From contig CP070751.1 in NCBI GenBank assembly GCA_020348445.1, positions 3,758,495 through 3,822,494 on the forward strand: a stretch of DNA of 64,000 bases, given 5' to 3'. This document shows, piece by piece, positions 15,253 to 52,696 of this stretch. The position numbers and the translations under genes are program-made. This DNA is from Thermoplasmata archaeon (GTDB taxonomy: Archaea; Thermoplasmatota; Thermoplasmata; GCA-020350865). The notes under the pieces were generated by a model. That model worked only from the letters and a program-made list of their open reading frames with translations, did no database searches and was not told the DNA's origin. The number at the start of each line of letters is the position of its first letter. Position 1 is the stretch's first letter.

Positions 15253-15285
15253 ATATCATTTTTGCTGACTTTTAAGTGTAAAATA

Positions 15286-16972: not shown

Positions 16973-16977
16973 TATGA

Positions 16978-19752: not shown

Positions 19753-20199
19753 TCAGTACATCTTATACGGGCTCGGTCCCAGAGATTTAATGGTATCAGT
19801 GAAATCCTTCATCAGCTCAGCAAATCTCTGTCCCTCGGAGGCAGATACCCATTCCAGGCGGTATCGCTCGGGCTCGATTCCAAGGTCCTCTAACATTAGA
19901 AAGAGGGCATCTGCCCTTTTTTCTGCCTTAAGGTTACCCTCTAGGTAATGGCAATCCCCTGGGTGGCAGCCGCACATGAGCACTCCGTCGGCACCTTTTG
20001 AGAGTGCATCGATAACAAGGTTTGGATGCACCATGCCAGAGCACATTACACGAATTATACGTATATTGTGGGGGTATTGCAGTCTAGAAGTACCTGCCAA
20101 ATCAGCCCCTGTATATGAACACCAATTGCAGCATATTGCCAGTATTAACGGCTCGAATTCCTCTTCTTGCGTTACACCCTCAGCAGCCCCTTCTTCCAT
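19753..20199 (-). CDS. mvhD: MvhD-type [2Fe-2S] subunit, stand-alone
   Basis: CCNWCSY, RVMCSG, GCHPGDCHY, LEWVSASEG. Confidence 0.95.
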   Translation of the reverse strand: MEEGAAEGVTQEEEFEPLILAICCNWCSYTGADLAGTSRLQYPHNIRIIRVMCSGMVHPNLVIDALSKGADGVLMCGCHPGDCHYLEGNLKAEKRADALFLMLEDLGIEPERYRLEWVSASEGQRFAELMKDFTDTIKSLGPSPYKMY

Positions 20200-23100
20200 T
20201 TATACCACCTCCAGTGCAGCTCCAATCATTGCAGATATTTGATCCAGTGTAAAACCTTTGACCATAACGCCCCTCTTCGGGCATGTGGCCATGCACACAC
20301 CGCAGCCCTTACAAGCAGCCTCGTTTCGCTCCACAGTCTTCTTCACATTTCCGTTTCTCATGTACTCTATCAACGTCAGAGCATTGAATGGGCAGGGATC
20401 AATACAATATGCACATCCATCACAGTTTTCGTCGATGATCTCCGATATCGTTGGCTCAAGCTCCATGATCTCATCAGAAAGAATCGTGCATGCCCTGGAT
20501 ACAGCTCCACAAGCCTGGGATATACTCTCATCAATGAATTTTGGGCTGTGTGCCAGGCCACATAAAAACACCCCTTCGGTTGCGAAGTCCACGGGCCGAA
20601 GTTTCATATGGGCCTCCAGGAAGAACTTGTCCTTTGAGAGCGGGATCTTGAGCATCTTAGCCAATTCTTCATTATCTGGCTGCGGCAAAGTGGCTGCTGA
20701 AAGCACCACATATTCTGGTTTTATTTTGATATGCTCTCCTAGGATCGGATCGTTTATAGATACTACCAGATCATCGCCTTCTTTGGTAACCTCAGGTTTG
20801 TTTTCGTCATCGTACCTAATGAACCTCACTCCCTTGTCAGCAGCTTCCCTGTAGTAGTCCTCCCTGAAACCATAAGATCTGATGTCCTTGTAGAGTACGA
20901 TTATTTGAGCATCTGGATTCTTTTCCTTGATCTTCAAGGCATTTTTAATGGCATCTGCACAGCATATCCTGCTGCAGTAAGGTCTTTCCTCTATCCTTGA
21001 GCCAACGCATTGGATCATTACAACACTGTTTGGTTTGATTTCATCCTTAGCAAGTTTCCCCTCAAGGTCCATTTGGGTAAGAACGCGGCTATCTTCCCTG
21101 TATAAATATTCAGTAGGTTTGTATTCTTGACCTCCTGTAGCTACAATAACAACTCCATGCTCGATTTTTGTGTCATCGGAAAGTTCGGTTGTGAAGCTGC
21201 CCATGAATCCTTCTATGCTTTTTACAGTGGTTTCAAGATGTAACTTTATTTTATCGTCATTTTTAACCTTCTCGATAATCTCCTTTAACATCTTCTGCGG
21301 ATCCTCACCTTTCTCGCTTAACACATGGTAAATATTTCTGAGATTTCCCCCGAGCTCCTTCTCCCTTTCCACAAGATGAACTTCAAATCCCTGCTTTGCC
21401 ATCTCAAGTGCTGCGGTCATGCCAGAAAGTCCACCACCTATGACAAGTCCAGATTGGAATACATTCAGTTCCAGTTTATACAATGGCTCAAGCAGTCTTG
21501 ATTTTGCTACAGCCATTCTAACGAGGTCCTTTGCCTTTTTAGTAGCGTTATCAGCATCATGCATGTGCACCCATGAGCACTGGTCCCTGATATTTGCCAT
21601 TTCAAAGAGATAGGGATTCAATCCACCTTCCTTTGTGGTGCTCCTGAAAAGAGGCTCATGGGTTCTTGGTGTGCATGATGCCACGATTACTCTGTTCAGG
21701 TTGTGCTCCACAATTTTCTCCTTGATTCCCTTTTGGGTGTCCTCGGAACAGGTATAGAGGTTGTGTTCGGCATGTTCAACATTTGGTAACGTTTTTGCAT
21801 ATTCCACGACATCTGGAACGTTCACCACACCACCGATGTTGATTCCACAGTGGCAGATAAAGACTCCGATTCTGGGATCCTCACCTAAAACATCCCTTTC
21901 TGGTGGGTACTCCTTGGGAGTGATCATCTTCCCTCTCTCAGAGGAGATAATGGATGATGCTTTGGCTGCTGCTCCACTTGCCTGGGCCACCGTATCTGGG
22001 ATGTCCTTGGGACCGTTGAAAACACCGCTCACATAAACTCCTTCCCTTGATGTTTCCAAGGGTGAGAAAACTCCAGTTGAGCAGAAGTCATACTTGTTCA
22101 AATCAATACCCAGTGTCTCTGCAAATTCCTTCACGTTTTCAGGGGGTCTGAAACCTGTGGATAAAACAACCATGTTGAATTCTTCTTCCTTAACCTCCCC
22201 ATCTTCTACATATTTGATTATGAGGTTGTTAGTTTCAGGTACCTCACGAACCTCGGCCACCCTGCATCGTGTGAACTTGATCTTGTGCTCCTCCTGGGCT
22301 CTCGTGTAGTAATCATCGAATTCCTTACCAAAGGCTCTCAGGTCCATGAAGAAAATATGGGATTTCAAGCCCTCTGAATGCTCCTGAGCAATTATCGCCT
22401 CTTTCATTGCGAACATGCAACATACTGAGGAACAATATTCGCTTCCTGCTTGGCTGTCTCTGCTTCCCACGCATTGTAAGAACGCCACCTTTTCTGGAAT
22501 GTCCCCGTCAGAAGGTCGCATCACTGTACCTGCGAAGGGTCCTGTTGCAGAAAGGAATCTTTCAAATTCCATACTCGATACTACATTCTTGTATCTGCCG
22601 TAGCCATATTCGGTTTTCAGAGAAGGATCGAACATACTATATCCCGGGGATAAAACGATGGAACCCACATTCAAATCGAACTTCTGCTCCTCTTGGTCGT
22701 ACTCCACTGCCTCGGCCTTGCATTCCTCCTGGCAGATGCCGCATCCTATGCATTTTTCCTTGTCTATCATGAATTTCAGAGGAACTGATTGAGGGTAACG
22801 AATAAAGGTCGCCCCCCTTCTAGTCAATCCCCAGTTGTACTCATCTATTGCTTCAACGGGACATTTTGCACCACAGACTCCGCATCCTGTACATTTTTCT
22901 TCATTGATCCTCCTTGGCCTTCTTACGAGATTAACGTTGAAATTTCCTGCCTCACCTTCAATTGATTCGATCTCTGTGTTGCTGATGACCTCGATATTAT
23001 GATGTCTTCCCGTTCCCACGAGCTTTGGAGCCATGATGCACATGGCGCAGTCGTTTGTTGGAAAGGTTTTATCCAACTGGGACATCACACCTCCTATTGA

Positions 23101-23217
23101 GGGGAGCTTATCTATTAGATAAACCTTGAATCCTGCATCTGCAAGATCAAGTGATGATTGCATTCCGGAAATTCCACCCCCGACAACAAGAACCGCTCCC
23201 ACCTTATCATTGCTCAT
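20200..23217 (-). CDS. hdrA: two-FAD HdrA-family flavoprotein (BamE-like / QmoA+QmoB-like), copy 1
   Basis: Two GGGxSG FAD motifs; FPTNDCAMC; CVGSR...CSSVCC; IGVFICHCG; inserted and C-terminal 2x[4Fe-4S] ferredoxin motifs. Confidence 0.95.
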   Translation of the reverse strand: MSNDKVGAVLVVGGGISGMQSSLDLADAGFKVYLIDKLPSIGGVMSQLDKTFPTNDCAMCIMAPKLVGTGRHHNIEVISNTEIESIEGEAGNFNVNLVRRPRRINEEKCTGCGVCGAKCPVEAIDEYNWGLTRRGATFIRYPQSVPLKFMIDKEKCIGCGICQEECKAEAVEYDQEEQKFDLNVGSIVLSPGYSMFDPSLKTEYGYGRYKNVVSSMEFERFLSATGPFAGTVMRPSDGDIPEKVAFLQCVGSRDSQAGSEYCSSVCCMFAMKEAIIAQEHSEGLKSHIFFMDLRAFGKEFDDYYTRAQEEHKIKFTRCRVAEVREVPETNNLIIKYVEDGEVKEEEFNMVVLSTGFRPPENVKEFAETLGIDLNKYDFCSTGVFSPLETSREGVYVSGVFNGPKDIPDTVAQASGAAAKASSIISSERGKMITPKEYPPERDVLGEDPRIGVFICHCGINIGGVVNVPDVVEYAKTLPNVEHAEHNLYTCSEDTQKGIKEKIVEHNLNRVIVASCTPRTHEPLFRSTTKEGGLNPYLFEMANIRDQCSWVHMHDADNATKKAKDLVRMAVAKSRLLEPLYKLELNVFQSGLVIGGGLSGMTAALEMAKQGFEVHLVEREKELGGNLRNIYHVLSEKGEDPQKMLKEIIEKVKNDDKIKLHLETTVKSIEGFMGSFTTELSDDTKIEHGVVIVATGGQEYKPTEYLYREDSRVLTQMDLEGKLAKDEIKPNSVVMIQCVGSRIEERPYCSRICCADAIKNALKIKEKNPDAQIIVLYKDIRSYGFREDYYREAADKGVRFIRYDDENKPEVTKEGDDLVVSINDPILGEHIKIKPEYVVLSAATLPQPDNEELAKMLKIPLSKDKFFLEAHMKLRPVDFATEGVFLCGLAHSPKFIDESISQACGAVSRACTILSDEIMELEPTISEIIDENCDGCAYCIDPCPFNALTLIEYMRNGNVKKTVERNEAACKGCGVCMATCPKRGVMVKGFTLDQISAMIGAALEVV

Positions 23218-24005
23218 GCTTTCACCTCCGGTACAATGGAGATGTATTTGGGTGTAAATCCTTCGATTGAGTCCAGTGCAAGCTGATTTCTCTTTCTAAG
23301 AAAGACCACATGATCCAGAATTCTGTCTGTAGGAAGATCAATCTCAGAGGCGAGCTCCTTTACTGACATTGGTTTTTCGGTAATTAGGCCAAGTAGTCTC
23401 TTCCTTTCAAACTCGGCCTCGATGGCGTCCTCCATAAACTCGTCCCACTCCTCCTGACTCTTGGTTTCATTATATACATTACCCTGTTCCACTATCTTTC
23501 TCTCTTTTGAAACAATGGCTCTGAGTCTGAAATCCAGTGCTGCGAGCTTGGCCGCATTTATATTGGCCATTAGTTTCTCATCCGGTTTCTCTCCAGATAA
23601 CGGGCTCGGCCCCAATTCCTGAATTTGCTTGGGAAATTCTCTCATGAGTATAGCAAATCTTTCACCTTCTGATGCTGCAACCCATTCCATTCTGAGCCTT
23701 TCAGGCTCCAATCCAGCTTTCTTAACAAGCTGTCTCGTCATCTTTATCTTTCTTTCAGCCTGGTAGTTGCCCTCAAGGTAATGGCAGTCTCCAGGGTGGC
23801 ATCCACCTATAAACACACCATCCACACCCTGGGTAAAGGCTTCGAGGACGATATAGGGATCGATTCTTCCTGAACACATGACTCTGATGATCCTGATGTT
23901 TGGAGGATACTGGAATCTGGAAACACCTGCCAAATCGGCTCCTGCATATGAACACCAGTTGCATAAGAAGCCAACAATTTTCGGTTCAAATTCAGTCTCA
24001 GCCAT
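23214..24005 (-). CDS. mvhD: MvhD with C-terminal extension ending in a winged-helix-like domain
   Basis: MvhD Cys motifs plus ~130 aa tail including PMSVKELASEIDLPTDRILDHVVFLRKRN. Confidence 0.9.
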   Translation of the reverse strand: MAETEFEPKIVGFLCNWCSYAGADLAGVSRFQYPPNIRIIRVMCSGRIDPYIVLEAFTQGVDGVFIGGCHPGDCHYLEGNYQAERKIKMTRQLVKKAGLEPERLRMEWVAASEGERFAILMREFPKQIQELGPSPLSGEKPDEKLMANINAAKLAALDFRLRAIVSKERKIVEQGNVYNETKSQEEWDEFMEDAIEAEFERKRLLGLITEKPMSVKELASEIDLPTDRILDHVVFLRKRNQLALDSIEGFTPKYISIVPEVKA

Positions 24006-27000
24006 CTAGTTCACCTCCTTTACAGCAGCAACAACCTGTGCAATAAGTTGCTCGTCAGTGAACTGTTTAATAGAGGCTGCCTTCTCGGGACAACTTGCAG
24101 CGCATGTCCCACAGCCTTTGCAGAGCACTTCGGTTACCCTTGCTATACCATTTTCATCTTTTTCGATTGCATTGAAGGGACATATGACCACGCACGTTCC
24201 GCATCCTGAACATATATCTTCATCTATACTGGAAACCATTCCTTCAGCTTCCAAGGTTTTCTTGGAAAGTATTGTTGCGGCTCTGGAAACAGCTGCACTT
24301 GCCTGGGATACACATTCCTCAAAGAATTTCGGTGAATGGGCAAGCCCGCATAGGAATATACCCTCTGTTGCAAATTCAACTGGACGAAGTTTCATGTGGG
24401 CTTCCAAGAAGAATTTATGTTTGGAAAGGGGCACCTTCAACATCTGTGCCAAATCAGCATTATCTGGGTGAGGGATAGTGGCTGCACTCAAAACTAAAAC
24501 GTCGGGTTTGATTGTTATTTCCTCTCCTAAAAAGGGCTCCCAGATCTTCACCTCCAATCCCTTCTTATCAGCAACCTTTGGCTTGGTTTCGTCATCGTAT
24601 CTTATGAACTTGACTCCATTTTTTGCAGCCTCCTCGTAGAATACCTCGCTGAATCCATATGTTCTTATATCCTTGAATAAGACATAAACACTCGTTGCTG
24701 GATTCATTTCCTTGACCTTCAAGGCGTTCTTCACGGCCTCGGTGCAGCATACCCTGCTGCAATATGGTCTCTCATCATTTCTGCAGCCAACGCATTGAAT
24801 CATCACAACTGTGTCTGCATCCATCTTCTTCTTTGCCAGCTTTCCTTCAAATTCCAGTTGAGTCATTACGTTGTCGTTCTCCCCGTAAAGGTACTCTTTT
24901 GGTTTGTGCTCCATCCCTCCCGTGGCAACTATCACTATACCATGCTCGATTTCCTTTTCTTCGCCATTTTGGTCGATTGTTGTCTTGAAGTTTCCGATGT
25001 AACCAGATATATCCTTTACTGTGCTGTTTGTAAACACATGAATCTTCTTATCTGAATTTACGTTTTTAATCAATTCCTTCAGTTTTTTCTGGACATCCTT
25101 TTTTTCACCCACCATTTCATAGTGGACCCTCTTCATGAGGCCTCCAAGTTCGTTTTCTCTTTCCACAATGAACGCCTCGAAACCTTGTTTTGAAAGCTCC
25201 TGTGCCGCTGTGATACCAGAAAGACCACCGCCTATAACAAGACCTGATGGTTTGACTTCAATTGGGACCCTTGTGAGAGGTTCTAATAATCCTGCCTTTG
25301 CCACCACCATTCGAACCAGGTCTTTTGCCTTCTGTGTGGCTTTTGCAGGTTCATGCATGTGAACCCATGAGCATTGGTCACGAATATTTGCCATCTCGAA
25401 TAAATAAGGATTCAGGCCCGCTTCTGCACACGTATTTTGGAATAAGGGTTGATGGGTTCTTGGAGTACAGGAAGCCACAATAACCCTGTTTAGATTGTTC
25501 TCTTCAATTTTCTCTCGTATTTTTTTCTGGGTATCCTGTGAACATGTATACAAATTGTTCTCTGCATAAGCAACATTCGGTAGGGTCTTTGCATATTCCA
25601 CGACACCAGGCACATCCACAACCCCGCCTATGTTGATTCCGCAGTGGCATATGAAGACACCTATGCGCGGCTCCTCACCACTTACTTCTTTTTCAGGGGG
25701 GTATTCCTTTACTGTAACCAGTTTCCCCCTCTCGGAAGCGATGACAGAAGATGCTTTAGCCGCAGCACCACTAGCCTCTGATACACTATCGGGAATGTCC
25801 TTTGGAGCCCCGAATGCTCCACCCACAAATATACCAGGTTTGGAGGTTTCCAGTGGTGAGAACAGAATGTCTGTTGAGCAAAAATCATATGGATTTAATT
25901 GTACCCCAAGTTTTTCTGAAAGGTCCTTTGCATCCTTTGGTGCCGTCATGCCAACGGCAAGGGCAACCATATCGAAGACCTCCGAGACAAGGTTACCCTT
26001 GTCTATAAAGGTCACCAGCAGATTATTTGTGATAGGATCCTCTGCAATGGATGATATTCTATTGTTTTTAACAAATCTAATGCCGTGTTCTTTTTCTGCC
26101 CTCACATAATAATCGTCGAACTCCTTTCCAAAGGCTCTCATATCCATGAAGAATATGGTGGCTTCCAAACCTGGATTATGCTCTTGAGCAATAACAGCCT
26201 CCTTTATCGCGAACATACAGCATACTGAAGAACAGTAGGGATTACCTATGCTTCTATCCCTGGAACCAACACATTGAACGAAGGCTATCTTCTTTACCAC
26301 TTCACCGTCTGAGGGTCTTAATACTAATCCGCCAAACGGACCCGTTGCAGAAAGCATTCTCTCAAGTTCAAGGCTTGATACAACGTTTGGAAATCGACCA
26401 TAACCGTATTCTTTTCTTTTTTGAACTAAATCGAACTCGTCAAAACCAGGGGAAAGAATGATTGATCCCACTTCCAATACCTTTGTTTCGGGCTCCTGGC
26501 TGTAAACTATGGCCCCGGCTTTGCAAAGTCTCTCACAGTTACCGCAACCAATGCAGTAATCCTTGTCTATTGAAAAAATCAGTGGTACGGCTTGGGGGTA
26601 TTTGACAAATATGGCTTTGCGGACTTTTAATCCTTTATTGTATTCGTCCACCACCTCCACAGGGCATTTTTGTGTACAAATGCCGCACCCTGTACATTTG
26701 CTTTCATCTATGAATCTCGACTTTTTGGAAACAGTGACCTTGAAATTTCCTGCTTTTCCCTCGATTTTGTCGATGGTTGAATTGGTAATCAAATCTATGT
26801 TCCTATGTCGTCCAGTTTCCACCAATTTTGGGGCCATTATACACATTGCACAGTCATTTGTTGGGAATGTTTTGTCAAGCTGGGCCATGGCTCCACCAAT
26901 ACTAGGACTCTTGTCCACAAGATAGACTCGATATCCTGAATCCGCCAGATCCAATGAGGACTGCATCCCTGCAATACCGCCTCCGACGACCATAACTGCT

Positions 27001-27017
27001 CCAACAGAGTCTGTCAT
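24006..27017 (-). CDS. hdrA: two-FAD HdrA-family flavoprotein, copy 2
   Basis: Same motif set as copy 1. Confidence 0.95.
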   Translation of the reverse strand: MTDSVGAVMVVGGGIAGMQSSLDLADSGYRVYLVDKSPSIGGAMAQLDKTFPTNDCAMCIMAPKLVETGRHRNIDLITNSTIDKIEGKAGNFKVTVSKKSRFIDESKCTGCGICTQKCPVEVVDEYNKGLKVRKAIFVKYPQAVPLIFSIDKDYCIGCGNCERLCKAGAIVYSQEPETKVLEVGSIILSPGFDEFDLVQKRKEYGYGRFPNVVSSLELERMLSATGPFGGLVLRPSDGEVVKKIAFVQCVGSRDRSIGNPYCSSVCCMFAIKEAVIAQEHNPGLEATIFFMDMRAFGKEFDDYYVRAEKEHGIRFVKNNRISSIAEDPITNNLLVTFIDKGNLVSEVFDMVALAVGMTAPKDAKDLSEKLGVQLNPYDFCSTDILFSPLETSKPGIFVGGAFGAPKDIPDSVSEASGAAAKASSVIASERGKLVTVKEYPPEKEVSGEEPRIGVFICHCGINIGGVVDVPGVVEYAKTLPNVAYAENNLYTCSQDTQKKIREKIEENNLNRVIVASCTPRTHQPLFQNTCAEAGLNPYLFEMANIRDQCSWVHMHEPAKATQKAKDLVRMVVAKAGLLEPLTRVPIEVKPSGLVIGGGLSGITAAQELSKQGFEAFIVERENELGGLMKRVHYEMVGEKKDVQKKLKELIKNVNSDKKIHVFTNSTVKDISGYIGNFKTTIDQNGEEKEIEHGIVIVATGGMEHKPKEYLYGENDNVMTQLEFEGKLAKKKMDADTVVMIQCVGCRNDERPYCSRVCCTEAVKNALKVKEMNPATSVYVLFKDIRTYGFSEVFYEEAAKNGVKFIRYDDETKPKVADKKGLEVKIWEPFLGEEITIKPDVLVLSAATIPHPDNADLAQMLKVPLSKHKFFLEAHMKLRPVEFATEGIFLCGLAHSPKFFEECVSQASAAVSRAATILSKKTLEAEGMVSSIDEDICSGCGTCVVICPFNAIEKDENGIARVTEVLCKGCGTCAASCPEKAASIKQFTDEQLIAQVVAAVKEVN

Positions 27018-27799
27018 GCCTCCACCTCCTGGGTTTGAGCTAGGTACATTGGTGTTGTACCTTCGATACCCTCTAGTCTAATCAGATTCCTGTCCCTCAA
27101 TGTAACGATATGTTTAAGAATGTCCCTTGAAGGGACTTTCATCTTATCAGCAAGCCCTTTGACAGATTGTGGTTTGTCTTTAGCTAGAAGAAGGATTCTT
27201 GTACGTACGAGCTCTTCATCGATTGCATTTTCCATCAACTCATCTATCCTTTCCTGGGGTATTTTTTCATCATAGACGTTTTCCTTTTCAACCAGAGCAA
27301 GCTCTTTGCCAACAAGTGTTCTTAACCTGAAATCTTCTACAGCGTTTCTTGCGGCATAAAGGGATTCCATGATTAGCAAATTGGGTTTCTCTCCAGCTAC
27401 TGGATTTGGTCCCAAGGATCTGACCTGTTCTGTGAAATCCCTCATGGTCTTGGCAAATCTCTCACCTTCGGAGGCGGCTATCCATTCAAGGCTTAATCTC
27501 TCTGGTTCGAGACCGGACTTTGCAAGGACCTTCTTCAGCATTTTCACTCTCCTCTCAGTATGATAATTCCCCTCCATGTAATGGCAATCACCTGGGTGAC
27601 ATCCGCCAATGAGCACCCCGTCAGCACCTTGGATGAACATCTCGATAACAAACAGGGGATCAACCCTACCGGAGCACATCACCCTCACGATTCTGATATT
27701 GGGTGGATACTGAAATCTGCTAACACCTGCCAAATCTGCTCCTGCGTAACTACACCAATTGCACAAGAAACCAACAATCTTCGGTTCAAATGCCTTCAT
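27014..27799 (-). CDS. mvhD: MvhD-wHTH fusion
   Basis: MvhD motifs plus PQSVKGLADKMKVPSRDILKHIVTLRDRN. Confidence 0.9.
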   Translation of the reverse strand: MKAFEPKIVGFLCNWCSYAGADLAGVSRFQYPPNIRIVRVMCSGRVDPLFVIEMFIQGADGVLIGGCHPGDCHYMEGNYHTERRVKMLKKVLAKSGLEPERLSLEWIAASEGERFAKTMRDFTEQVRSLGPNPVAGEKPNLLIMESLYAARNAVEDFRLRTLVGKELALVEKENVYDEKIPQERIDELMENAIDEELVRTRILLLAKDKPQSVKGLADKMKVPSRDILKHIVTLRDRNLIRLEGIEGTTPMYLAQTQEVEA

Positions 27800-27822
27800 C
27801 TTCTACACCCCTATTTTTATTA

Positions 27823-28107
27823 TCACTCATCCTCCACTCCCGACATCAATCCTCTTACACAAACTGAGAAATTACATGAATCTGATCTTGCCCTCTCACA
27901 GTAATGACATCTTAAAGTCAGAAGCACTTCTCTTACGATCCATTCCTTTGTCTCGTCATCAACATCTGGAAGGTTCTTTTTAATCTCCATAATACTTTTA
28001 CTCTGTACATCCTTCCATTTTGGTTGTGTTGATAGGTGCATTCTCTTTTTCCATGCATTCCTCATCTCTTCGATCTTCTTTTGTTCTTCTTCGTTTAATT
28101 CACTCAA
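27823..28107 (-). CDS. small Cx2Cx7Cx4C protein, copy X1
   Basis: LTLRCHYCERARSDSCNFSVCVRGL; TTG start after GGAGGGA; four paralogs in the window. Confidence 0.9.
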   Translation of the reverse strand: MSELNEEEQKKIEEMRNAWKKRMHLSTQPKWKDVQSKSIMEIKKNLPDVDDETKEWIVREVLLTLRCHYCERARSDSCNFSVCVRGLMSGVEDE

Positions 28108-39544: not shown

Positions 39545-39645
39545 GCCCCCTTAAGGATCGAACATGATTACATATTACCTTCCCTTTATACACTGTACAT
39601 AGGGGAGGAGGGAATTGCTCTTTTATGATATATATTTTATGACGA

Positions 39646-39691: not shown

Positions 39692-39743
39692 TTTCCATAT
39701 CTCGTCATGGATATCTGCGGTATATTTTTCAATAGTTATGGTA

Positions 39744-40871: not shown

Positions 40872-41003
40872 AACCCCAATGCCCCCAATCCCAGGTATAA
40901 AATTGGAGATTAAAAAACTTATTATTATCCGAAAGCTATGAATTTTGAAAGCAAGTAATAGTTAAAATAGTTCGTAACAAATAAGAAAATATTTTAAAGG
41001 AAC

Positions 41004-41721: not shown

Positions 41722-41748
41722 TTATGGTACCCCCTTTTTTTGAGCAGG

Positions 41749-43515: not shown

Positions 43516-43568
43516 ACACCCCTTCAGCAATCGCAGCATCTTATGGTCATATTACCAATATCACTTCT

Positions 43569-44714: not shown

Positions 44715-47700
44715 TCGATTTCCTCCTTCTGAGGTTTAATGGATTGTTCTATCGGATTCAATGGATTGGGCCCGAGCTCTTTGACCTTGTTTACGAACTC
44801 TGTCATGACCTCTGCAAATCTTTTTCCTTCGGATGCAGAGATCCATTCTAATCGAACACGCCTTTCATCCATACCCAACAATCCTATAAGTTCTTTTACG
44901 TTTTTGACCCTAATTTCCGCCTTCTCATTTCCTGATATATAATGGCAGTCGCCGATATGACAGCCTGCAACCAGTATACCATCCACTCCTTTATGAAGTG
45001 CTTCCATAATAAATGATGGGGAGATTCTTCCCGAGCACATCACCCTTATCACCCTGATATTTGGCGGGTACTGAAATCTGGAAACACCTGCCAAATCAGC
45101 CCCGGCATAGGCACACCAATTGCAGCAGAATGCTAGTATGAAGGGTTCAAATTCCTCCCTCAATTTATGCCCTTCAAGTGCAGAGTCTATCATGGTATGA
45201 ATCTGATCATTTTTGAAATGCTTTGTAATGATGGCGTTATTGCAGCAACTTGCAGCACATGCTCCGCAGCCCTTGCATAAAGCCTCATTGATTTTCGAAT
45301 GCTTTTTCCCTTCATCATCTGTAATGAGCTCGGGGGCGCCGAACTCACAGATATCGACGCATTCTCCACATCCTCGACATTTTGACTCGTCAACAACAGA
45401 GATTACAGCATTTGCTTCAAAGAATTTTTTAGAAAGCAAAGTTGCAGCCCTTGATACCGTCCCCTTAGCCTGTGAAATACATTCCTCCAAGAATTTTGGT
45501 GAATGCGCAAGCCCGCACAAAAAGACCCCCTCGGTTGCGAAATCCAAAGGACGTAATTTCATATGAGCCTCCAGGAAAAATCCATCCTTGGAGAGGGGAA
45601 CCTTAAGCATCTTGGCGATTTTTTCATTGTCGACACTGGGTATTGTGGCTGTGCTTAGAACCAAAAGATCTGGATTGATATCGATATTTTCACCTAGAAA
45701 ATGATCGAAAATTGATACAGAAAGCTCACCACCTGCAAGCTGAACATCGGGCTTTGAATCGTCATAGTACCTGATGAATATTATACCTGATCTTGCAGCC
45801 TCTTCATAGAAGATCTCGCGAAAGCCGTATGTTCTCATGTCCTTGTATAGGATGTATATATTTGCTTCGGGATTCAATTCCTTCAACTTCAAAGCATTTT
45901 TCACGGCCTCTGAGCAGCAGACCCTGCTGCAATATGTCCGTGTCTCATCCCTGCTTCCCACACACTGAATCATAACTACTGTCTTTGCATCCACTTGGCC
46001 TTTTCCTAATCTCTCTTCAAAATCCAGTTGGGTGATGATCCTCTCATCCTGGCCGTATAGGTACTCTTTAGGCTCGTAACTGATGCCGCCGGTAGCAACG
46101 ATAACGGCTCCATGTTCCAATGTCTTCTCCTCGCCGTTTTCAGAAATAGTGGTTTTAAAATCTCCCACACAACCCTCGATATTCTTGATTTCAGAATTTA
46201 CATACACATTTATCTTATCATTGGAATTGATCTTGTCTATGGTTTCCTTTAAAAATTCCTGAAGATTTTCTCCGGTGAGCATATAATGCAGCCGCTTGAG
46301 ATTTCCTCCAAGTTCCTTCTCTTTTTCAACGATATGAGCAGCAAATCCATGCTCAGCCAATTCCAAGACAGCCATCATACCCGATATTCCACCGCCTATG
46401 ACAAGGGCCGATTGATTTATGGGAATTTCCACTTTATACAATGGTTCAAGCAATCTCGTTTTTGAAATGGCCATTCTCACAAGGTCCTTAGCCTTCCTTG
46501 TTGCAGCCTCTGGCTCGTGCATGTGAACCCATGAGCACTGATCGCGGATATTAGCCATTTCAAAGAAGTATGGATTCAACCCCGCCTCTCTTACAGTATT
46601 CTGAAAAAGCGGTTCATGGGTTCGGGGTGTACAGCTGGCCACGACAACGCGGTTGAGATTATGCTCCTCTATTTTTGATTTGATTTTTTGCTGCGTGTCC
46701 TGTGAACATGTGTAGGGGTTACTCTCTGCATAAACAACATTAGGTAGGTTTTTAACGTACTCCACAACCTCTGGAACCTTAACTACACCACCTATGTTGA
46801 TTCCGCAGTGGCAAATGAATACTCCCAAACGGGGCTCCTCCTGGGCTACCTCTTTTTCAGGTGGATACTCCTTTACTTCAACAAGTTTGTCCCTCTCGGA
46901 CGCAATCAAGGACGAAGCACATGCAGCAGCACCGCTTGCTTGGGCCACAGTATCTGGAATATCCTTTGGAGCCGAAAATGCCCCTGAGACGAAAACCCCT
47001 TTCCTGTTTGTCTCAAGAGGTGAAGTAACACTTGTTTCGCAAAAGTTGTAATCATTTAACTCAACACCCAATTTCTCGGCGAGCTCCAAGGCAGTATCTG
47101 GTGAGTCCATGCCAACAGAAAGAACAACCAGATCGAACTCTTCTTCCTTTAACTCCCCCTCGTCAACATAATTCAATATTAAATTGTTGGTGTTTTTATC
47201 CTCTTTTACTCCCGAGACCCTGTTGTTCTTCACAAACCCGATTCCATGCTCCTCTTCTGCTCTAATGTAATAATCATCAAATTCCTTGCCAAATGCCCGC
47301 ATGTCCATAAAGAATATGGTTGATTTTAACCCAGGTGCATGCTCCTGTGCTATTACAGCCTCCTTGATTGCGAACATGCAACATACAGATGAGCAATATG
47401 GATTTCCAGACGTCCTATCTCTGGAACCAACACATTGAATAAATGCAACTTTTTTTGGAATCTCGCCGTCAGAGGGTCGCAGAACCAATCCATTGAAGGG
47501 TCCTGTGGCACTGAGCATGCGCTCCATTTCCAAACTTGAGATCACATTTGGGAATTTTCCATAACCATATTCCTTGCGTTTTGATAGAATGTCAAATTCC
47601 TTAAATCCAGGTGACATGATGATGGAGCCAACTTGTATATTGATCTCCTTTTTTTCCTGGGAATATTTTATGGCCTCTGCCTCACACTGGGTCTCGCAGA

Positions 47701-48235
47701 GCCCGCAGCCAATGCATATCTCCTGGTCAATACAATGAACAGGTGGAACAGCTTGAGGATACTTTACATGGATGGCTTTTCTTCTCTTTAGGCCCTTGTT
47801 GTACTCGTCCTTTACTTCAATGGGGCATCTTTGTGTACAAATACCGCATCCCGTACAACGACTTTCATCCACATATCTCGGCCTCTTGGTGAGGGTGACC
47901 TTGAAATTTCCTGCTCCTCCTTCTACATTCTCCAAATCTGCATTTGTGATGAGCTGGATATTGTGATGGCGTCCAGTCTCCACAAGTTTGGGAGCCATGA
48001 TGCACATTGCACAATCATTTGTAGGGAAGGTCTTATCAAGCTGGGACATTGCCCCACCGATGCTGGGGCTGTTATCGAGGACATAGACTTTGAATCCTGA
48101 ATCTGCCAGATCCAGTGCAGACTGCATGCCTGAGATTCCGCCACCTATTATGAGAATCGCGCCTACCTTTTTTGATTCAGCTTCCTTAATGACTGAAGCA
48201 GCTTCTACCTCGACCTGTCCATCCTTTGCCTCTAT
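44702..48235 (-). CDS. hdrA: two-FAD HdrA fused to C-terminal MvhD, apparent ATA start
   Basis: Track ATG 48127 lies inside the FAD motif (GGGISG-M); the frame is open upstream through KKVGAILIIGGG to ATA 48235; C-terminal CCNWC/MCSG/GCHIGDCH MvhD domain. Confidence 0.92.
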   Translation of the reverse strand: MEAKDGQVEVEAASVIKEAESKKVGAILIIGGGISGMQSALDLADSGFKVYVLDNSPSIGGAMSQLDKTFPTNDCAMCIMAPKLVETGRHHNIQLITNADLENVEGGAGNFKVTLTKRPRYVDESRCTGCGICTQRCPIEVKDEYNKGLKRRKAIHVKYPQAVPPVHCIDQEICIGCGLCETQCEAEAIKYSQEKKEINIQVGSIIMSPGFKEFDILSKRKEYGYGKFPNVISSLEMERMLSATGPFNGLVLRPSDGEIPKKVAFIQCVGSRDRTSGNPYCSSVCCMFAIKEAVIAQEHAPGLKSTIFFMDMRAFGKEFDDYYIRAEEEHGIGFVKNNRVSGVKEDKNTNNLILNYVDEGELKEEEFDLVVLSVGMDSPDTALELAEKLGVELNDYNFCETSVTSPLETNRKGVFVSGAFSAPKDIPDTVAQASGAAACASSLIASERDKLVEVKEYPPEKEVAQEEPRLGVFICHCGINIGGVVKVPEVVEYVKNLPNVVYAESNPYTCSQDTQQKIKSKIEEHNLNRVVVASCTPRTHEPLFQNTVREAGLNPYFFEMANIRDQCSWVHMHEPEAATRKAKDLVRMAISKTRLLEPLYKVEIPINQSALVIGGGISGMMAVLELAEHGFAAHIVEKEKELGGNLKRLHYMLTGENLQEFLKETIDKINSNDKINVYVNSEIKNIEGCVGDFKTTISENGEEKTLEHGAVIVATGGISYEPKEYLYGQDERIITQLDFEERLGKGQVDAKTVVMIQCVGSRDETRTYCSRVCCSEAVKNALKLKELNPEANIYILYKDMRTYGFREIFYEEAARSGIIFIRYYDDSKPDVQLAGGELSVSIFDHFLGENIDINPDLLVLSTATIPSVDNEKIAKMLKVPLSKDGFFLEAHMKLRPLDFATEGVFLCGLAHSPKFLEECISQAKGTVSRAATLLSKKFFEANAVISVVDESKCRGCGECVDICEFGAPELITDDEGKKHSKINEALCKGCGACAASCCNNAIITKHFKNDQIHTMIDSALEGHKLREEFEPFILAFCCNWCAYAGADLAGVSRFQYPPNIRVIRVMCSGRISPSFIMEALHKGVDGILVAGCHIGDCHYISGNEKAEIRVKNVKELIGLLGMDERRVRLEWISASEGKRFAEVMTEFVNKVKELGPNPLNPIEQSIKPQKEEIECPQ

Positions 48236-48555
48236 CCCACCACCCCCTTCCCTGAAAGCAATCCTCTAATGCACACCGAGAAATGACAGGCATCGCTTCT
48301 TGCCCTCTCGCAGCTGTGGCATCTTAACGTGAGAAGTAATTCTCTTGTGATTTTCTTTCTTGTCTCTTCATCTATATCGGGGAGGTTTTCCTTGCAATCC
48401 TGAATGATCTTATTTTGAACCTGAGCCCAGGCGGGTAAGGTGGAGACCTTGTATTTTTTTCTCCAAGAGTTGCGAATATTTTTGATCTTGTCCAACTCTT
48501 CTTCTTTTATTTCCTTGTCACCATTATTAATTTCCATTTTTGTTCCCCTATTCAA
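48232..48555 (-). CDS. small Cx2Cx7Cx4C protein, copy X4
   Basis: LTLRCHSCERARSDACHFSVCIRGL; TTG start. Confidence 0.9.
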   Translation of the reverse strand: MNRGTKMEINNGDKEIKEEELDKIKNIRNSWRKKYKVSTLPAWAQVQNKIIQDCKENLPDIDEETRKKITRELLLTLRCHSCERARSDACHFSVCIRGLLSGKGVVG

Positions 48556-49346
48556 TCACTTTGGACATAGTTATATATTGGAGATGAGCCTTCGATTTTC
48601 TCCAGGCCCACCAATCCCCTGTCCCGAAGTACCACCAGGTGTTCTAGGACCTCTCTTGAGGGGGTTTTAATGTCCTGGGCTATATCTTTGACTGACCTGG
48701 ACTTTTTCATAAGTGACCTCAGAATTCTTTGTCTGAGCATCTCCTCCTCAATAATTTCATCCAGTATCCCATCAAATCGTTCATCTTCGATTTTGTTGTT
48801 GTAGACATTCCCCTTTTCAATTATGTTGTATGCTTTTGCGCAAAGTAATCTCAACCTGAAATCGTTGGCTGCATCCCTTGCTATTAACAATTGCTCCATA
48901 ATTTTCAGGTCAGGGGATTTGCCCGAGATCGGGCTTGGCCCAAGTTCCTTAATTTTGTTGGTCATGTCCTTCATTATTTCGGCAAATCTAACAGATTCTG
49001 ATGCAGAGACCCATTCCAATCTTAGCCTCTCTGGGTTCAACCCTACCCTTTGAAGCAGACTCTTGGTCATTTCTATCCTATACACTGTATGATAATTACC
49101 CTCCATGTAGTGACAGTCCCCGGGATGGCACCCGCCAATAAATACTCCATCAATACCCTGTATGAACATCTCCAGTATTATGGAAGGCTCGATTCTGGAA
49201 CTGCACATGACCCTAACGATTCTGATATTATGGGGGTACTGTATCCTGCTCACACCTGCCAAATCGGCTCCGGCATAACAGCACCAATTACAAAGGTAGC
49301 CTATTATCTTTGGATCGAACTCATCCAATGCCCCATCCCCATTCAC
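48552..49346 (-). CDS. mvhD: MvhD-wHTH fusion
   Basis: MvhD motifs plus SRSVKDIAQDIKTPSREVLEHLVVLRDRG; GTG start. Confidence 0.9.
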   Translation of the reverse strand: MNGDGALDEFDPKIIGYLCNWCCYAGADLAGVSRIQYPHNIRIVRVMCSSRIEPSIILEMFIQGIDGVFIGGCHPGDCHYMEGNYHTVYRIEMTKSLLQRVGLNPERLRLEWVSASESVRFAEIMKDMTNKIKELGPSPISGKSPDLKIMEQLLIARDAANDFRLRLLCAKAYNIIEKGNVYNNKIEDERFDGILDEIIEEEMLRQRILRSLMKKSRSVKDIAQDIKTPSREVLEHLVVLRDRGLVGLEKIEGSSPIYNYVQSD

Positions 49347-52300
49347 TTGATCTCCTCCTCAAGCAATGGCAACCCTTGAGCTATTAGCTGGTCCAAGGTG
49401 TAATGATTCATGGTAATTGCCCGCTCGGGACACGCGGCGGCACAAGAACCACAACCTTGGCAAAGGGCCTCCATGGTTCTCATTTTCTTCTTCCCTTCCA
49501 CTGGCTGTATGGCTCCATAAGGGCATACCTGCTCGCATGTTTTACATCCAATACACCTTTCCTCATCTATCCATGAGGTGATGGGTTCGTTTTGGGCAAA
49601 TCCTCTAATCATTGGAATTGCCGCCTTCATTGCGGCTCCACTTCCCTGTACAAGGGACTCGGCTATATTCTTGGGGCTCTGAAGGCATCCTGCAAGATAA
49701 ATTCCCTCGACACTGGCCTCGATGGGTGCCAGTTTGATGTGCTTTTCCATACAAAAGCCGCTTCCGCATTGAGTCACCTTAAAATGTCGAAGCAAATCAG
49801 AAGTATCAGGATGATGTGCAACCATTCCCAAAACGAGAATAACTGTGTCCACATTGAGCTCCAATTCCTCTTCTGAGAGTTCATCGAAAACGAGAATCCT
49901 GGCTGATCCCTTCAGATCTTCAACCTTTGGTTTGTTATTGAATTCATATTTTATGAACTGGACACCGAGCTCACAGGCCTTCCTGTACATCTCCTCCCCG
50001 CCTTTACCATAGGTTCTGATATCTCGGTAAAGAACCATCACATTGATTCCCATCTTTTTCAGCTGGATTGCCTGTTTCATGGTGGTTTTACAGCAGTATC
50101 TCGAGCAATCACCAATTCCTTCAGTGCCCTTGCGATCAAAGAGCCGCTCGCACAAAGGATCTCGGGAGCCTACACACATGATAAATGCTATGCTTTTTGG
50201 CTCTCTATCGTTGATTACGATCTCGCCCTTTGTGGGGCCTTCGGGATTCAGTAACCTCTCAAGGCCAATATTGCTGATTACGGTGATTGCCTCAAGGCTA
50301 TCTGGGCTGTCCTCGTAACAGTATTCCCCCTGTGGATCGTATACATCAGAGCCGATCGCCAAGACAACTGTTCCGGCCTTAAGCCGTTTAAAGTCGTTAT
50401 CAAGGTACTTGATTGATTCTGGGGTTATGGCTCCTGTGGGACATACTTCGGCACATTTACCACATTGATTGCAATCCCTGACCACGATGTTGTAAGACTT
50501 GGGCCATGAATTTGGGTGCATGTATATGGCTTTGCGTGTTGATATCCTCCTGTCAAACAGGTAATGGGATGTAACAGGACACACATCTTCACATCTACCG
50601 CATGCATCACATTTTTCAATATCCACTCCCCTTGCCCTTTGTGTTATCTCAACCTCGAAATTGCCAAGGTAGCCTTCCACATTCGTAACCTCGGATTTCA
50701 AATGGACCTTGATATTGGGTCTTCTATCTATTGCTTGGTACATCCTGTCCAATATTATATGGGATGGTTGGCTTTCTGGAAATACCTCTCCCAGCTGTGC
50801 CACCCTACCTCCGAGGTATGCGGCCTTCTCAACAAGATTCACATCAAAACCCATGTTAGCAAGGTCAATTGCACTGCGCATCCCTGCTATTCCACCTCCA
50901 ATTACCAGGGCACTTCTTTCGATCTCGATACTTTTCGGATAGAGCGGTTGTAGATAAGCAGCCTTGGCAACAACCATGCTGATAAGGTCCTTGGCCTTTT
51001 CTGTGGCTTTCTCAGGCTCCTGCATGTGAACCCAGGAGCATTGATCCCTGATATTTGCCATCTCAAATAGGAATGGATTTAGCCCGGCTTTCTCGCAGGT
51101 ATCCCTAAATATCGGTTCATGTGTTTTTGGTGTGCATGAGGCAATGACCACCCTATTTAGATTCTTTTCCTTTATCATATTTCCTAGATGTGTCTGGGAA
51201 TCCTCTGAACACGTGTAGAGATTCTCCTCGGCATAGACCACATAAGGTAGGGTATTGGCATGCTCAACCACCTTGGGCACATCCACTATACCGCCTATAT
51301 TTATGCCACACCGGCATACAAAAACACCAATTCTAAGCTCCTCTGGCTCCCCACCTTCCTCGGGTTTTGTAATATCTTCTTTTATCTCTTCCCTCTCTAT
51401 GACGTCCTTTAACCATAACATCGTCCTGGAAGCTGCGGCACTTGCCTCGGCAACACTGTCAGGAATATCCTTCGGGCCAAGGGCACAACCTGCAAGGGAG
51501 ATACCGGGTTTAGTGGAATCCACGGGCAATGCATTGATGTGCCTCTCTTTGAAAAATCCGTTTTCATCCAGTTGAATACCAAGAATCTCGGCCAATTTAC
51601 CGTTACTTTTATTGGGGATGATGGTCGTGGAAAGTATTACCAAATCCCCTTTGATTTCCATGGTCTCTCCTTTCTTTATATCACCGACCCGAACGAGGAT
51701 ATCATTAGTGTCTGGATCCTCGATAATCTCAGCAGGCTTGCCTTTTACAAAATCGATTAAGATTTCGTCTTTGGCCCTGAGATAGTAATTTTCAAAGTGC
51801 TTGCCATAGGCTCTGATATCCATGTATAAAATGTGCATCTCCTCGATATTTGGGTCATGCTCCTTGGCTATCATGGCCTCCTTTATGGAATGCATGCAGC
51901 AAACGGCAGAGCAGTAGCTGCATCTGTTAACATCACGAGAGCCGACACATTGAATAAATACAACGCTCTTCGGTGGTTTGCCGTCAGACGGTCTAAGAAT
52001 CTTGCCCTGAGTAGGACCCGATGCACTCATGAGCCTTTCGAACTCTAATGAAGAGATAATATTCACGTACTGGTCATATTTATACTGGGGAACCATGGAG
52101 GGAGGCAGGATATCGTATCCTGTGGCAACTATTATCGCACCCACATCCAATAGAATTTCTATATCCTTTTGCTCAAAGTCTATGGCACCCCGTAAGCAAG
52201 CTTTTTCGCATAACCTGCACTTCCCTTTTAAAAAATAGGTGCAATTCTCAGAATCGATGGTATATATCAACGGTACCGCCTGTGGAAATGGGATGTAAAT

Positions 52301-52696
52301 TGCCTTTCTATGGGTCATTCCCATATCAAATTCAGAGGGTACTTTCTTAGGACATTTCTCAGCACATGTTCCACAACCAGTGCACTTTTCTTCGTCGATG
52401 TACCGTGCATGCTTCAATATCTTAACTTTAAACTCCCCAGCCTTTCCTTGGCACTCCAAAAGCTCTGAATTTGCCAGAATCTCGATATTTGGATGTCTTC
52501 CAGCCTCTACTAATTTAGGCGAGAGAATGCACATAGAGCAATCGTTTGTCGGGAAGGTCTTGTCAAGTTGTGCCATCTTGCCCCCCAGTGAGGGGGACTT
52601 CTCAACAAGATATGTCTTAACACCAGCATTTGCCAAATCCAGTGCCGCTTGAACACCGGCAATACCGCCACCTATTACAAGCACACCTTTATTCAT
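49343..52696 (-). CDS. hdrA: two-FAD HdrA with two inserted ferredoxin domains (1117 aa), first gene of the array
   Basis: Two FAD motifs; inserted ferredoxin in both modules (CTGCGTCAEKCP; CDACGRCEDVCP/CNQCGKCAEVCP) plus C-terminal ferredoxin. Confidence 0.94.
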   Translation of the reverse strand: MNKGVLVIGGGIAGVQAALDLANAGVKTYLVEKSPSLGGKMAQLDKTFPTNDCSMCILSPKLVEAGRHPNIEILANSELLECQGKAGEFKVKILKHARYIDEEKCTGCGTCAEKCPKKVPSEFDMGMTHRKAIYIPFPQAVPLIYTIDSENCTYFLKGKCRLCEKACLRGAIDFEQKDIEILLDVGAIIVATGYDILPPSMVPQYKYDQYVNIISSLEFERLMSASGPTQGKILRPSDGKPPKSVVFIQCVGSRDVNRCSYCSAVCCMHSIKEAMIAKEHDPNIEEMHILYMDIRAYGKHFENYYLRAKDEILIDFVKGKPAEIIEDPDTNDILVRVGDIKKGETMEIKGDLVILSTTIIPNKSNGKLAEILGIQLDENGFFKERHINALPVDSTKPGISLAGCALGPKDIPDSVAEASAAASRTMLWLKDVIEREEIKEDITKPEEGGEPEELRIGVFVCRCGINIGGIVDVPKVVEHANTLPYVVYAEENLYTCSEDSQTHLGNMIKEKNLNRVVIASCTPKTHEPIFRDTCEKAGLNPFLFEMANIRDQCSWVHMQEPEKATEKAKDLISMVVAKAAYLQPLYPKSIEIERSALVIGGGIAGMRSAIDLANMGFDVNLVEKAAYLGGRVAQLGEVFPESQPSHIILDRMYQAIDRRPNIKVHLKSEVTNVEGYLGNFEVEITQRARGVDIEKCDACGRCEDVCPVTSHYLFDRRISTRKAIYMHPNSWPKSYNIVVRDCNQCGKCAEVCPTGAITPESIKYLDNDFKRLKAGTVVLAIGSDVYDPQGEYCYEDSPDSLEAITVISNIGLERLLNPEGPTKGEIVINDREPKSIAFIMCVGSRDPLCERLFDRKGTEGIGDCSRYCCKTTMKQAIQLKKMGINVMVLYRDIRTYGKGGEEMYRKACELGVQFIKYEFNNKPKVEDLKGSARILVFDELSEEELELNVDTVILVLGMVAHHPDTSDLLRHFKVTQCGSGFCMEKHIKLAPIEASVEGIYLAGCLQSPKNIAESLVQGSGAAMKAAIPMIRGFAQNEPITSWIDEERCIGCKTCEQVCPYGAIQPVEGKKKMRTMEALCQGCGSCAAACPERAITMNHYTLDQLIAQGLPLLEEEIK

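Follow-up and report, generated by a model that had tools for sequence, protein, structure and literature searches.

What does a long row of HdrA and MvhD genes do next to a single hydrogenase? The question is raised by a stretch of 64,000 nucleotides (hereafter, the window; contig CP070751.1) from the genome of a Thermoplasmata archaeon, an uncultured, non-methanogenic sediment organism. Positions 19753-52696 of the window (33 kb) hold 22 genes, all of them on the minus strand according to the listing of open reading frames (ORFs) and Pfam; nine of the ORFs belong to the HdrA family, and eight MvhD domains are distributed among them. Comparison with related loci indicates that this array arose in its lineage by serial repetition of the inner unit of a conserved operon linked to a hydrogenase, with two further sets of genes upstream. 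The assignment follows from the recurrence of the core gene order across phyla and from the variation in the number of units among loci.

The components are of known kinds: type II HdrA, MvhD, HdrD-like and FrhB-like proteins and parts of a group 3c hydrogenase. No description of the core operon, of the rule that governs the placement of tailed and short MvhD, or of the expansion to five serial cores was found in the literature searched, and these features, in a genome with about 30 HdrA-family genes, are what is new here.

Gene content of the array

Genes are numbered in the order of transcription, from high to low coordinates, so that gene 1 is HdrA copy a and gene 22 is the terminal short MvhD. 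MvhDw denotes an MvhD with a C-terminal helical and winged-helix extension (the tail). The methods that support each assignment are given in parentheses.

Gene 1: 49343-52696, minus, fused double (type II) HdrA copy a, 1117 aa (Pfam, motif maps, tree)
Gene 2: 48552-49346, minus, MvhDw, 264 aa (FlpD E 9.5e-53 and weak HTH_5/HTH_20; alignment)
Gene 3: 48232-48555, minus, small Cys-rich protein copy 1, 107 aa (paralogue set, alignment)
Gene 4: 44702-48127, frame open to 48265, minus, fused double HdrA copy b with a C-terminal fused MvhD (Pfam)
Gene 5: 43569-44714, minus, HdrD-like protein, 381 aa, with two CxxCxxCxxxC motifs and two CCG domains (Pfam CCG E 4.3e-24)
Gene 6: 41749-43539, minus, single HdrA-like protein A1x, 596 aa, with N-terminal domain, one TrxR domain and C-terminal ferredoxin domain
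Gene 7: 41004-41582, minus, short MvhD, annotated N-terminal 50-60 aa doubtful (FlpD E 7.2e-51)
Gene 8: 39744-40871, minus, FrhB/FdhB-like flavoprotein with N-terminal 2x[4Fe-4S], 375 aa (Pfam)
Gene 9: 38237-39544, minus, split HdrA of the N-half type, 435 aa, TrxR with inserted ferredoxin domain, Cys194/197 kept
Gene 10: 36333-38237, minus, split HdrA of the C-half type, 634 aa, N-terminal domain, TrxR and C-terminal ferredoxin domain
Gene 11: 35530-36336, minus, MvhDw, 268 aa (Pfam, alignment)
Gene 12: 35228-35533, minus, small Cys-rich protein copy 2, 101 aa (paralogue set, alignment)
Gene 13: 32217-35282, minus, fused double HdrA copy c, true start probably Met at about 35228 (Pfam, motif maps, tree)
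Gene 14: 31432-32217, minus, MvhDw, 261 aa (Pfam, alignment)
Gene 15: 31127-31435, minus, small Cys-rich protein copy 3, 102 aa (paralogue set, alignment)
Gene 16: 28104-31127, minus, fused double HdrA copy d (Pfam, tree)
Gene 17: 27823-28107, minus, small Cys-rich protein copy 4, 94 aa, TTG start behind GGAGG (tblastn)
Gene 18: 27014-27799, minus, MvhDw, 261 aa, structure modeled (Pfam, model, Foldseek)
Gene 19: 24006-27017, minus, fused double HdrA copy e, 1003 aa (Pfam, alignment to 5odc_A, tree)
Gene 20: 23214-24005, minus, MvhDw, 263 aa (Pfam, alignment)
Gene 21: 20200-23217, minus, fused double HdrA copy f, 1005 aa, terminal unit (Pfam, tree)
Gene 22: 19753-20199, minus, short canonical MvhD, 148 aa, VhuD-like, at the array end facing mvhGA (FlpD E 9.6e-55)

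The HdrA family is represented by six two-Rossmann proteins of 1003-1141 aa, the split pair (435 and 634 aa) and the single copy of 596 aa; one MvhD [2Fe-2S] adaptor comes after each core. All eight FlpD/MvhD domains match at E 1e-51 to 1e-56; the alignment of the short MvhD at 41004-41582 with its orthologues spans about 135 aa. Most of the genes abut or overlap by 1-4 nt, and from 39544 down to 19753 fourteen successive genes either overlap by 1-4 nt or are no more than 32 nt apart. This stretch contains five cores (the split pair and copies c, d, e and f) and ends at the sole hydrogenase. The two sets upstream of it are copy a, MvhDw, copy b with its fused MvhD, and the HdrD-like gene; and A1x, short MvhD and the FrhB-like gene. 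A promoter and terminator scan found fewer promoter-like sites than in shuffles; its models are bacterial and ill-suited to an archaeon, and the result was not used.

The first-pass annotation had described a one-strand array of this length and position with nine HdrA-family ORFs (six two-FAD proteins of about 1000-1180 aa, a split pair and a single copy), eight MvhD domains and overlapping junctions, converging on mvhGA and the hyp genes. The ORF listing and Pfam bear out these counts, coordinates and junctions, and mvhG and mvhA, on the plus strand, do face the array, with the hyp genes beyond them. Its gene list was incomplete: it lacked the HdrD-like and FrhB-like genes and all four small Cys-rich ORFs.

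A core operon conserved across phyla and its expansion

In a scan of one genome per species, close relatives of the double HdrA were encoded at 80 loci, and these loci were annotated with the window proteins. One gene order recurs: HdrD or FrhB (not always), split HdrA of the N-type (about 440 aa), split HdrA of the C-type (about 570 aa), MvhDw (about 255 aa), double HdrA (about 1010 aa), short MvhD (about 155 aa), and HdrD or FrhB. It is found in Bathyarchaeia, Asgard archaea, Jordarchaeia, Thermoplasmata and a few bacterial bins, and in most loci MvhG and MvhA lie directly downstream. The number of units consisting of MvhDw and double HdrA is one in most Bathyarchaeia, two in some genomes, three in a sister species (G002) and four in the window. 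The single-unit layout is illustrated by locus L120 of genome G029, where HdrD, the split pair, a small ORF, MvhDw, double HdrA and short MvhD are followed by convergent mvhA, mvhG and hycI, as in the window.

Across these groups, MvhD with a winged tail stands between HdrA genes and short MvhD stands at the ends. The rule was counted over 79 loci (L028-L106), which are kin, and no statistical test was applied: in 74 of about 86 cases a tailed MvhD is flanked on both sides by HdrA genes, and a short one is followed by HdrD (34), MvhG (4), FrhB (2) or other genes and is found between two HdrA genes once only. All eight MvhD domains of the window obey it. These observations support the earlier view of the array as an amplified set of HdrA/MvhD modules of the bifurcation type beside a single hydrogenase. 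In the phylum-wide count of MvhD domains, several other large Thermoplasmatota genomes have at least 14.

Anatomy of the fused HdrA proteins

Copy e was aligned to the HdrA of PDB entry 5ODC (5odc_A) with E 2e-215: residues 8-378 correspond to TrxR together with the ferredoxin domain inserted in it, residues 448-602 to the N-terminal cluster domain, and residues 867-997 to the C-terminal ferredoxin domain. Copies a, c, d, e and f carry two GxGxxG motifs per chain. According to the motif maps and the alignment of the halves, the N-half has Cys194/Cys197 (TNDCxMC) and the inserted ferredoxin domain and has neither the N-terminal domain nor the C-terminal ferredoxin domain; the C-half has these two domains (CHCGIN/CTPR) and lacks Cys197. 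The inserted 2x[4Fe-4S] ferredoxin domain is present in the C-half of copy a only, and the absence of Cys197 and of this domain from C-halves looks like a design feature common to the family. Each large protein is thus a single chain mimicking the HdrA dimer by complementary halves, a logic described for the pseudo-heterodimers of fused HdrA by Chadwick 2022 (PMC9012536). On the same grounds, two TrxR-like domains binding flavin adenine dinucleotide (FAD) and complementary halves, the double HdrA can be classed as type II, the name given to the fused form in PMC12054007, according to which type II HdrA has had no biochemical study to date.

The equivalents of the lysine at FAD-N5 (K409) and of the glutamate E356 are invariant in the N-half (35 of 35 relatives), and the C-half retains the lysine in 27 of the 35 and in all double HdrA copies of the window. 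An invariant N-half and a relaxed C-half fit BamE of Geobacter metallireducens, a fused HdrA dimer for which a study by cryo-electron microscopy assigns bifurcation to the N-terminal FAD and a structural role to the second FAD (10.64898/2026.04.10.717634). From this likeness to BamE we infer bifurcation by the double HdrA of the array.

The first-pass annotation held that all copies keep intact Cys and FAD motifs. This stands apart from three exceptions: the C-halves without Cys197, A1x without the FAD-N5 lysine, and the start of copy b. A1x (41749-43539) has Gly in place of the lysine found in all other copies, and its Cys194/197 motif is replaced by an insert rich in Cys, HNCGICCIQSCKSC. Copy b has its first ATG at 48127, with the first GGGISG further upstream, in frame. 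Upstream of this motif (48128-48265, minus strand) the frame is open and contains no ATG, GTG or TTG; the orthologues in the sister species G001 and G002 carry an in-frame ATG at that place. A non-canonical start, loss of the N-terminal FAD site, or a base error near the G-run are all possible. The split C-type HdrA has within TrxR a low-complexity insert of about 65 residues, first acidic and then Arg-rich (37032-37232, minus strand), that is found in no other copy.

Candidate outlets for electrons

The HdrD-like ORF (43569-44714) has the architecture of HdrD, a fusion of HdrC and HdrB. In its Cys map the second CCG motif is canonical and the first has four of five Cys; the nearest NCBIfam models are TfrB, LdhH, GlpC and HdrC, all under cut-off. 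No separate HdrB or HdrC was found in the array by Pfam. Genome-wide, there are 41 CCG domains, 22 MvhD domains and 26 HdrA-like tblastn loci, corresponding to about 30 HdrA-family ORFs, and separate HdrC-like and HdrB-like pairs adjoin HdrA genes near 1.248 Mb, near 3.498 Mb and twice near 4.577 Mb. The earlier claim of an array with no HdrB or HdrC and without the usual heterodisulfide output has to be revised, since the array contains an HdrD-like fusion, which is an output gene of the CCG type, and the genome search for hdrB and hdrC that had been proposed revealed at least four HdrC and HdrB pairs elsewhere. A disulfide acceptor is not required either, because BamD, the HdrD-like subunit that operates with BamE, hands electrons to the electron-transferring flavoprotein (ETF), in a complex where two modules of the bifurcation type are coupled (10.64898/2026.04.10.717634).

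The FrhB-like ORF (39744-40871) matches FrhB_FdhB_C with E 3.1e-38 and FrhB_FdhB_N with E 2.2e-21 and stays under the NCBIfam cut-offs for FrhB. These domains adjoin a short MvhD, as in input modules of the Elp/Fdh type. FrhB-like proteins are encoded at three loci of the genome, always beside HdrA/MvhD genes. CofD (PF01933) was not found in the genome, a single contig of 5.16 Mb of which 35.3 kb reads N, and for this reason the cofactor of the FrhB-like proteins may be other than F420.

Proposed function and its main alternative

With moderate confidence, we propose that the array encodes coupled HdrA cores, joined by tailed MvhD, that carry out flavin-based electron bifurcation driven by H2. 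H2 would be oxidized by MvhAG, and the electrons would enter at the terminal short MvhD. The FAD of the N-half would then bifurcate them to ferredoxin and to an exit of the CCG type, from where the high-potential electrons would pass through the HdrD-like subunit to an acceptor other than CoM-S-S-CoB, with ETF or a thiol/disulfide as candidates. The winged-helix tails of the internal MvhD would act as docking modules, like that of BamF, and tie neighboring HdrA cores into a multi-core assembly. The reverse direction, confurcation to H2, would also be possible. The likely task is to supply reduced ferredoxin from H2 for reactions of the Wood-Ljungdahl type, or the reverse. The multi-HdrA chain that had been suggested from the window gains indirect support from the gene-order rule and the BamF precedent.

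Several points weigh against coupled cores. Gene order and co-transcription are circumstantial, the compared loci are kin, and tandem duplicates stay adjacent whether or not their products touch. There is one HdrD-like gene per seven double cores, which leaves most cores without an encoded high-potential exit, and on thermodynamic grounds a simple downhill chain is implausible beyond two or three bifurcations to ferredoxin. The array of G001 lies in two distant pieces, which means that contiguity is not essential, and in most Bathyarchaeia the terminal MvhD has no tail, which means that the tail is not needed for docking to MvhG. The likeness of the tail to BamF is drawn from the description in a preprint, and the FrhB-like protein has no obvious cofactor, given that CofD was not found.

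The main alternative, which is less probable, is that the copies are interchangeable or specialized isoenzymes, in which each fused HdrA with its MvhD is a separate bifurcating core that recruits a donor or acceptor module of its own from elsewhere (about 20 CCG proteins, MetFV, FrhB-like proteins and ETFs), adjacency being due only to tandem duplication. The large genomic inventory speaks for it, as the HdrA-family ORFs, MvhD and CCG domains occur at many loci with different partners; so does the age of the copies, which have diverged (47-79% identity) as specialization predicts. Copy d is also absent from the examined contig of G002, the array of G001 is in two pieces, and a single HdrD-like gene serves the whole array. 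However, the split pair and the fused HdrA have been retained in one operon over several phyla, which points to joint function and not redundancy; the rule for tailed and short MvhD is hard to reconcile with lone pairs; and separate regulation is unlikely for 14 genes without a gap above 32 nt.

A stronger version of coupling is rather improbable: the units of MvhDw and fused HdrA would form a physical series whose number evolves, with each tailed MvhD handing one of the outputs of a core to the next. If true, the series could be a multi-stage redox ladder in which electrons are pushed stepwise, for example, below the potential of ferredoxin, or it could spread the electrons of one hydrogenase over several acceptors. 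In either case, coupling would go beyond the two modules seen in class II benzoyl-CoA reductase.

Genes of the Hdr/Mvh type without methanogenesis are among the highest-expressed and least-understood energy genes of Bathyarchaeia, Asgard archaea and sediment Thermoplasmata, and the usual label in papers is 'HdrABC-MvhADG with an unidentified heterodisulfide'. Our analysis adds a testable anatomy (HdrA cores of two different kinds, MvhD in two forms, one HdrD-like subunit and one hydrogenase), a gene-order rule pointing to the winged-helix tail of MvhD as the connector, and a set of natural variants in which the inner unit occurs once, twice or four times. Should the cores be coupled, they would provide another, independent example of bifurcation modules in a chain, the second so far, and would bear on how these abundant archaea obtain reduced ferredoxin from H2.

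The MvhD tail and the small Cys-rich protein

The model of the MvhDw at 27014-27799 (mean predicted local distance difference test, pLDDT, 90.7) is of high confidence and consists of a canonical MvhD domain onto which three helices and an ArsR/SmtB-like winged helix are packed; in Foldseek, the MvhD part matches 5odc_D with 61% identity and the tail matches SmtB/HlyU. A search with the tail alone against 1.84 billion representatives retrieved only 166 proteins, mostly MvhD-length ones of about 250 aa that carry it as their C-terminal part or stand-alone ones of about 110-135 aa, with a few that are longer. A word-indexed search with the tail alone returned only close relatives from Thermoplasmata and Thermoproteota, none of them a named BamF. 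The tails are mostly acidic (median isoelectric point 5.6). In a sister Thermoplasmata clade the tail is encoded on its own, by an ORF of 129-135 aa that sits between the terminal short MvhD and MvhG; the separate tail ORFs are the following.

L029:17254-17658, separate tail ORF
L063:13485-13874, separate tail ORF
L067:16652-17041, separate tail ORF
L074:14538-14924, separate tail ORF
L116:2237-2623, separate tail ORF

BamF offers a precedent: this MvhD adaptor is more than 100 aa longer than usual, and its winged helix contacts the donor subunit BamI (10.64898/2026.04.10.717634). The model, the small dedicated family, the acidity, the separate-ORF form and this precedent together favor a docking role of the tail over DNA binding. 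The fold itself, and the label 'predicted transcriptional regulator' that some homologues bear in JGI, would also suit a redox-sensing transcription regulator, with the [2Fe-2S] cluster as sensor and an ArsR-type DNA-binding domain controlling the operon. We consider this very unlikely, given five copies in one operon, each overlapping or abutting its neighbors, only 166 representatives of the tail, mostly on MvhD-length or stand-alone proteins, the mostly acidic tails, and the use of the comparable winged helix-turn-helix of BamF as a protein-protein interface.

The small Cys-rich ORF (94-107 aa, five conserved Cys, four copies in the array) always adjoins an MvhDw in the loci examined. It has 127 homologues among 5.8 billion proteins, and the named ones come from bins of Thermoplasmata and Methanomassiliicoccales. 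No Pfam or NCBIfam family matches it, the protein atlas gave no usable match, and its structure model is of low confidence (pLDDT 57). Our guess is that it probably serves as an accessory subunit that binds metal and is specific to this lineage. In JGI the protein bears the label 'ribosomal protein L44E', which looks doubtful, as no Pfam or NCBIfam family is assigned.

Hydrogenase neighborhood and genomic context

The following features lie between the array and the left part of the window.

18471-18896 and 19159-19623, minus, two FKBP-type (SlyD-like) genes between the array and mvhA (Pfam FKBP_C)
15896-18423, plus, mvhG and mvhA, group-3c-type [NiFe] hydrogenase, converging on the array (Pfam, NCBIfam)
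8537-15801, no strand given, hypA, hypD, hypE, hycI and three unrelated interspersed ORFs (Pfam)

The genome has two matches to NiFeSe_Hases (PF00374), both within mvhA, and hence a single [NiFe] hydrogenase. The best NCBIfam models for it are VhuA (456 bits) and VhuG, both under equivalog cut-offs. Proteins of the SlyD type are nickel chaperones in hydrogenase maturation. Both FKBP genes match one FKBP ORF in G001, which seems to have one at this place. Beside the hyp genes, an ORF of 1035 aa (4869-7976, plus strand) has no Pfam match at E 1e-6.

Elsewhere in the genome we found CdhC of CODH/ACS, three ETF pairs and, 22 kb beyond the window, a cluster of HdrA, MvhD, MetV and MetF. Three giant HdrA genes were also observed (1470-1588 aa; G000:C1:1249431-1254041, 3844686-3849095 and 4571489-4576252). 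They have a large insert after the first 150 residues or so, one of them is followed by MvhD, MetV and MetF, and they are probably the 'type III' form with a GltD insert.

McrA (PF02249), ComA (PF02679) and DsrC, like CofD, were not found in this one-contig genome with its 35.3 kb of N. The best NCBIfam matches (HdrA2, VhuA, VhuG and VhuD), and the label 'Methanomassiliicoccales archaeon' that NCBI gives to the sister genome G001, might suggest a canonical MvhADG-HdrABC that reduces CoM-S-S-CoB in a methanogen or methanotroph. This is highly improbable, as neither McrA and ComA nor CofD was found, the array has no separate HdrB or HdrC, and most NCBIfam matches are under the curated cut-offs, the exception being copy a (HdrA2, 1176.9 versus 1100 bits). 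We rejected a canonical methanogen Hdr on the lack of separate HdrBC in the array and of detectable Mcr and ComA.

Divergence and selection of the copies

The double HdrA copies share 47-79% identity at the protein level and 65-73% at the DNA level, and the longest exact stretch common to them is 26 nt; they are best described as diverged paralogues. In a FastTree phylogeny of 131 double HdrA sequences, each window copy clusters with its own orthologues. Copies c, d and e arose by duplications that predate the species split, and b and f are older Thermoplasmata paralogues. Copy a (beside another copy from the same genome) and the split pair form a deep branch, a small clade that also includes Asgard copies; their placement is unsure due to long branches.

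In the sister species the array is syntenic. G002 (a 56-kb contig) has the same gene order without unit d. In G001 (CP070739.1) the array is in two distant pieces with the break inside the split C-type gene, which may reflect a rearrangement between paralogues; the remnant of copy a observed there is only 75 aa (L108:3207-3662; L109:5127-5471, 16385-18085). Array orthologues in G001 and G002 are 79-95% identical. The ratio of the rates of non-synonymous and synonymous substitutions (dN/dS) is 0.016-0.19 in the 18 orthologue pairs between the source genome and G001 that gave an estimate. As dS is 0.7-2.5, near saturation, the ratios are rough; they are nevertheless far below one and indicate strong purifying selection on every gene tested, as presumed in the first-pass annotation. 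For copy b and the MvhDw at 48552-49346, dS is fully saturated.

The same annotation had allowed for a misassembly of strains, but strain variants or collapsed repeats joined in a row, as a repetitive-looking array in a metagenome-derived genome might suggest, are hardly credible with only 65-73% DNA identity and exact matches of at most 26 nt between copies, the same order in independently made assemblies of sister species and a separate orthologue clade for every copy, and this explanation was rejected without recourse to long reads.

Comparison with known systems

MvhAGD-HdrABC (PDB 5ODC) resembles the array in its group-3c-type MvhA/G, in MvhD (61% identity) and in an alignable HdrA (E 2e-215). 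It differs in having a homodimer of 650-aa HdrA chains, separate HdrB and HdrC, and CoM-S-S-CoB as acceptor, whereas the array has single-chain pseudo-dimers, one input arm and one HdrD-like gene.

The split pair is similar to QmoA/QmoB of sulfate reducers, with a QmoA-like member (no N-terminal domain) followed by a QmoB-like one, which is here a full HdrA with MvhD next to it. QmoABC was rejected since the array lacks the membrane subunit QmoC: the only NCBIfam match is a weak one to QmoC-N in the ferredoxin part of the HdrD-like ORF. DsrC is also missing from the genes found, and Apr/Sat were not searched for.

Elp-Hdr and Fdh-Hdr use input modules composed of FdhB-like ElpB and MvhD-like ElpC for bifurcation driven by F420H2 (PMC12350162). 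The array likewise has a flavoprotein of the FrhB/FdhB family beside MvhD and HdrA (39744-43539), but it has no ElpA/FdhA partner, CofD was not found, and the adjacent A1x has no lysine at FAD-N5.

Type II or fused HdrA of anaerobic methanotrophic archaea (ANME), Asgard archaea and TACK (PMC9012536; PMC12054007; PMC11237513) share with the window copies two TrxR domains per chain, the division of the N-terminal domain and Cys197 between the halves, frequent fusion or pairing with MvhD, an excess of HdrA genes over HdrBC, and occasional HdrD and FrhB/FdhB neighbors. In HdrA3/4 of ANME (Chadwick) the N-terminal domain is in the N-terminal half; the window copies are reversed, QmoA-like and then QmoB-like. 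The largest number of fused copies per assembly in these papers is six, and neither the order of the core operon nor the MvhD-tail rule is described in them. The genome studied here has about 30 HdrA-family ORFs.

The closest solved analogue, compared by its description in the preprint, is BamE/BamF/BamD of class II benzoyl-CoA reductase. Membership in this enzyme was rejected, as neither BamBC nor BamGHI is in the window: no ORF of the AOR type (tungsten reductase BamBC) or the HydBC type was found among the Pfam-annotated window genes. The donor in the array is a [NiFe] hydrogenase, and the C-half FAD lysine is kept in the double copies, where BamE has Gln768. The two systems are alike in a one-chain fused HdrA dimer with the conserved lysine of the bifurcating FAD in the N-terminal TrxR, in a long MvhD with a winged helix-turn-helix (the tails being likened from that same description), and in an HdrD-like CCG subunit, which in BamD is a high-potential exit to ETF and not to a disulfide. 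Class II benzoyl-CoA reductase has one such core, and the array has several in series.

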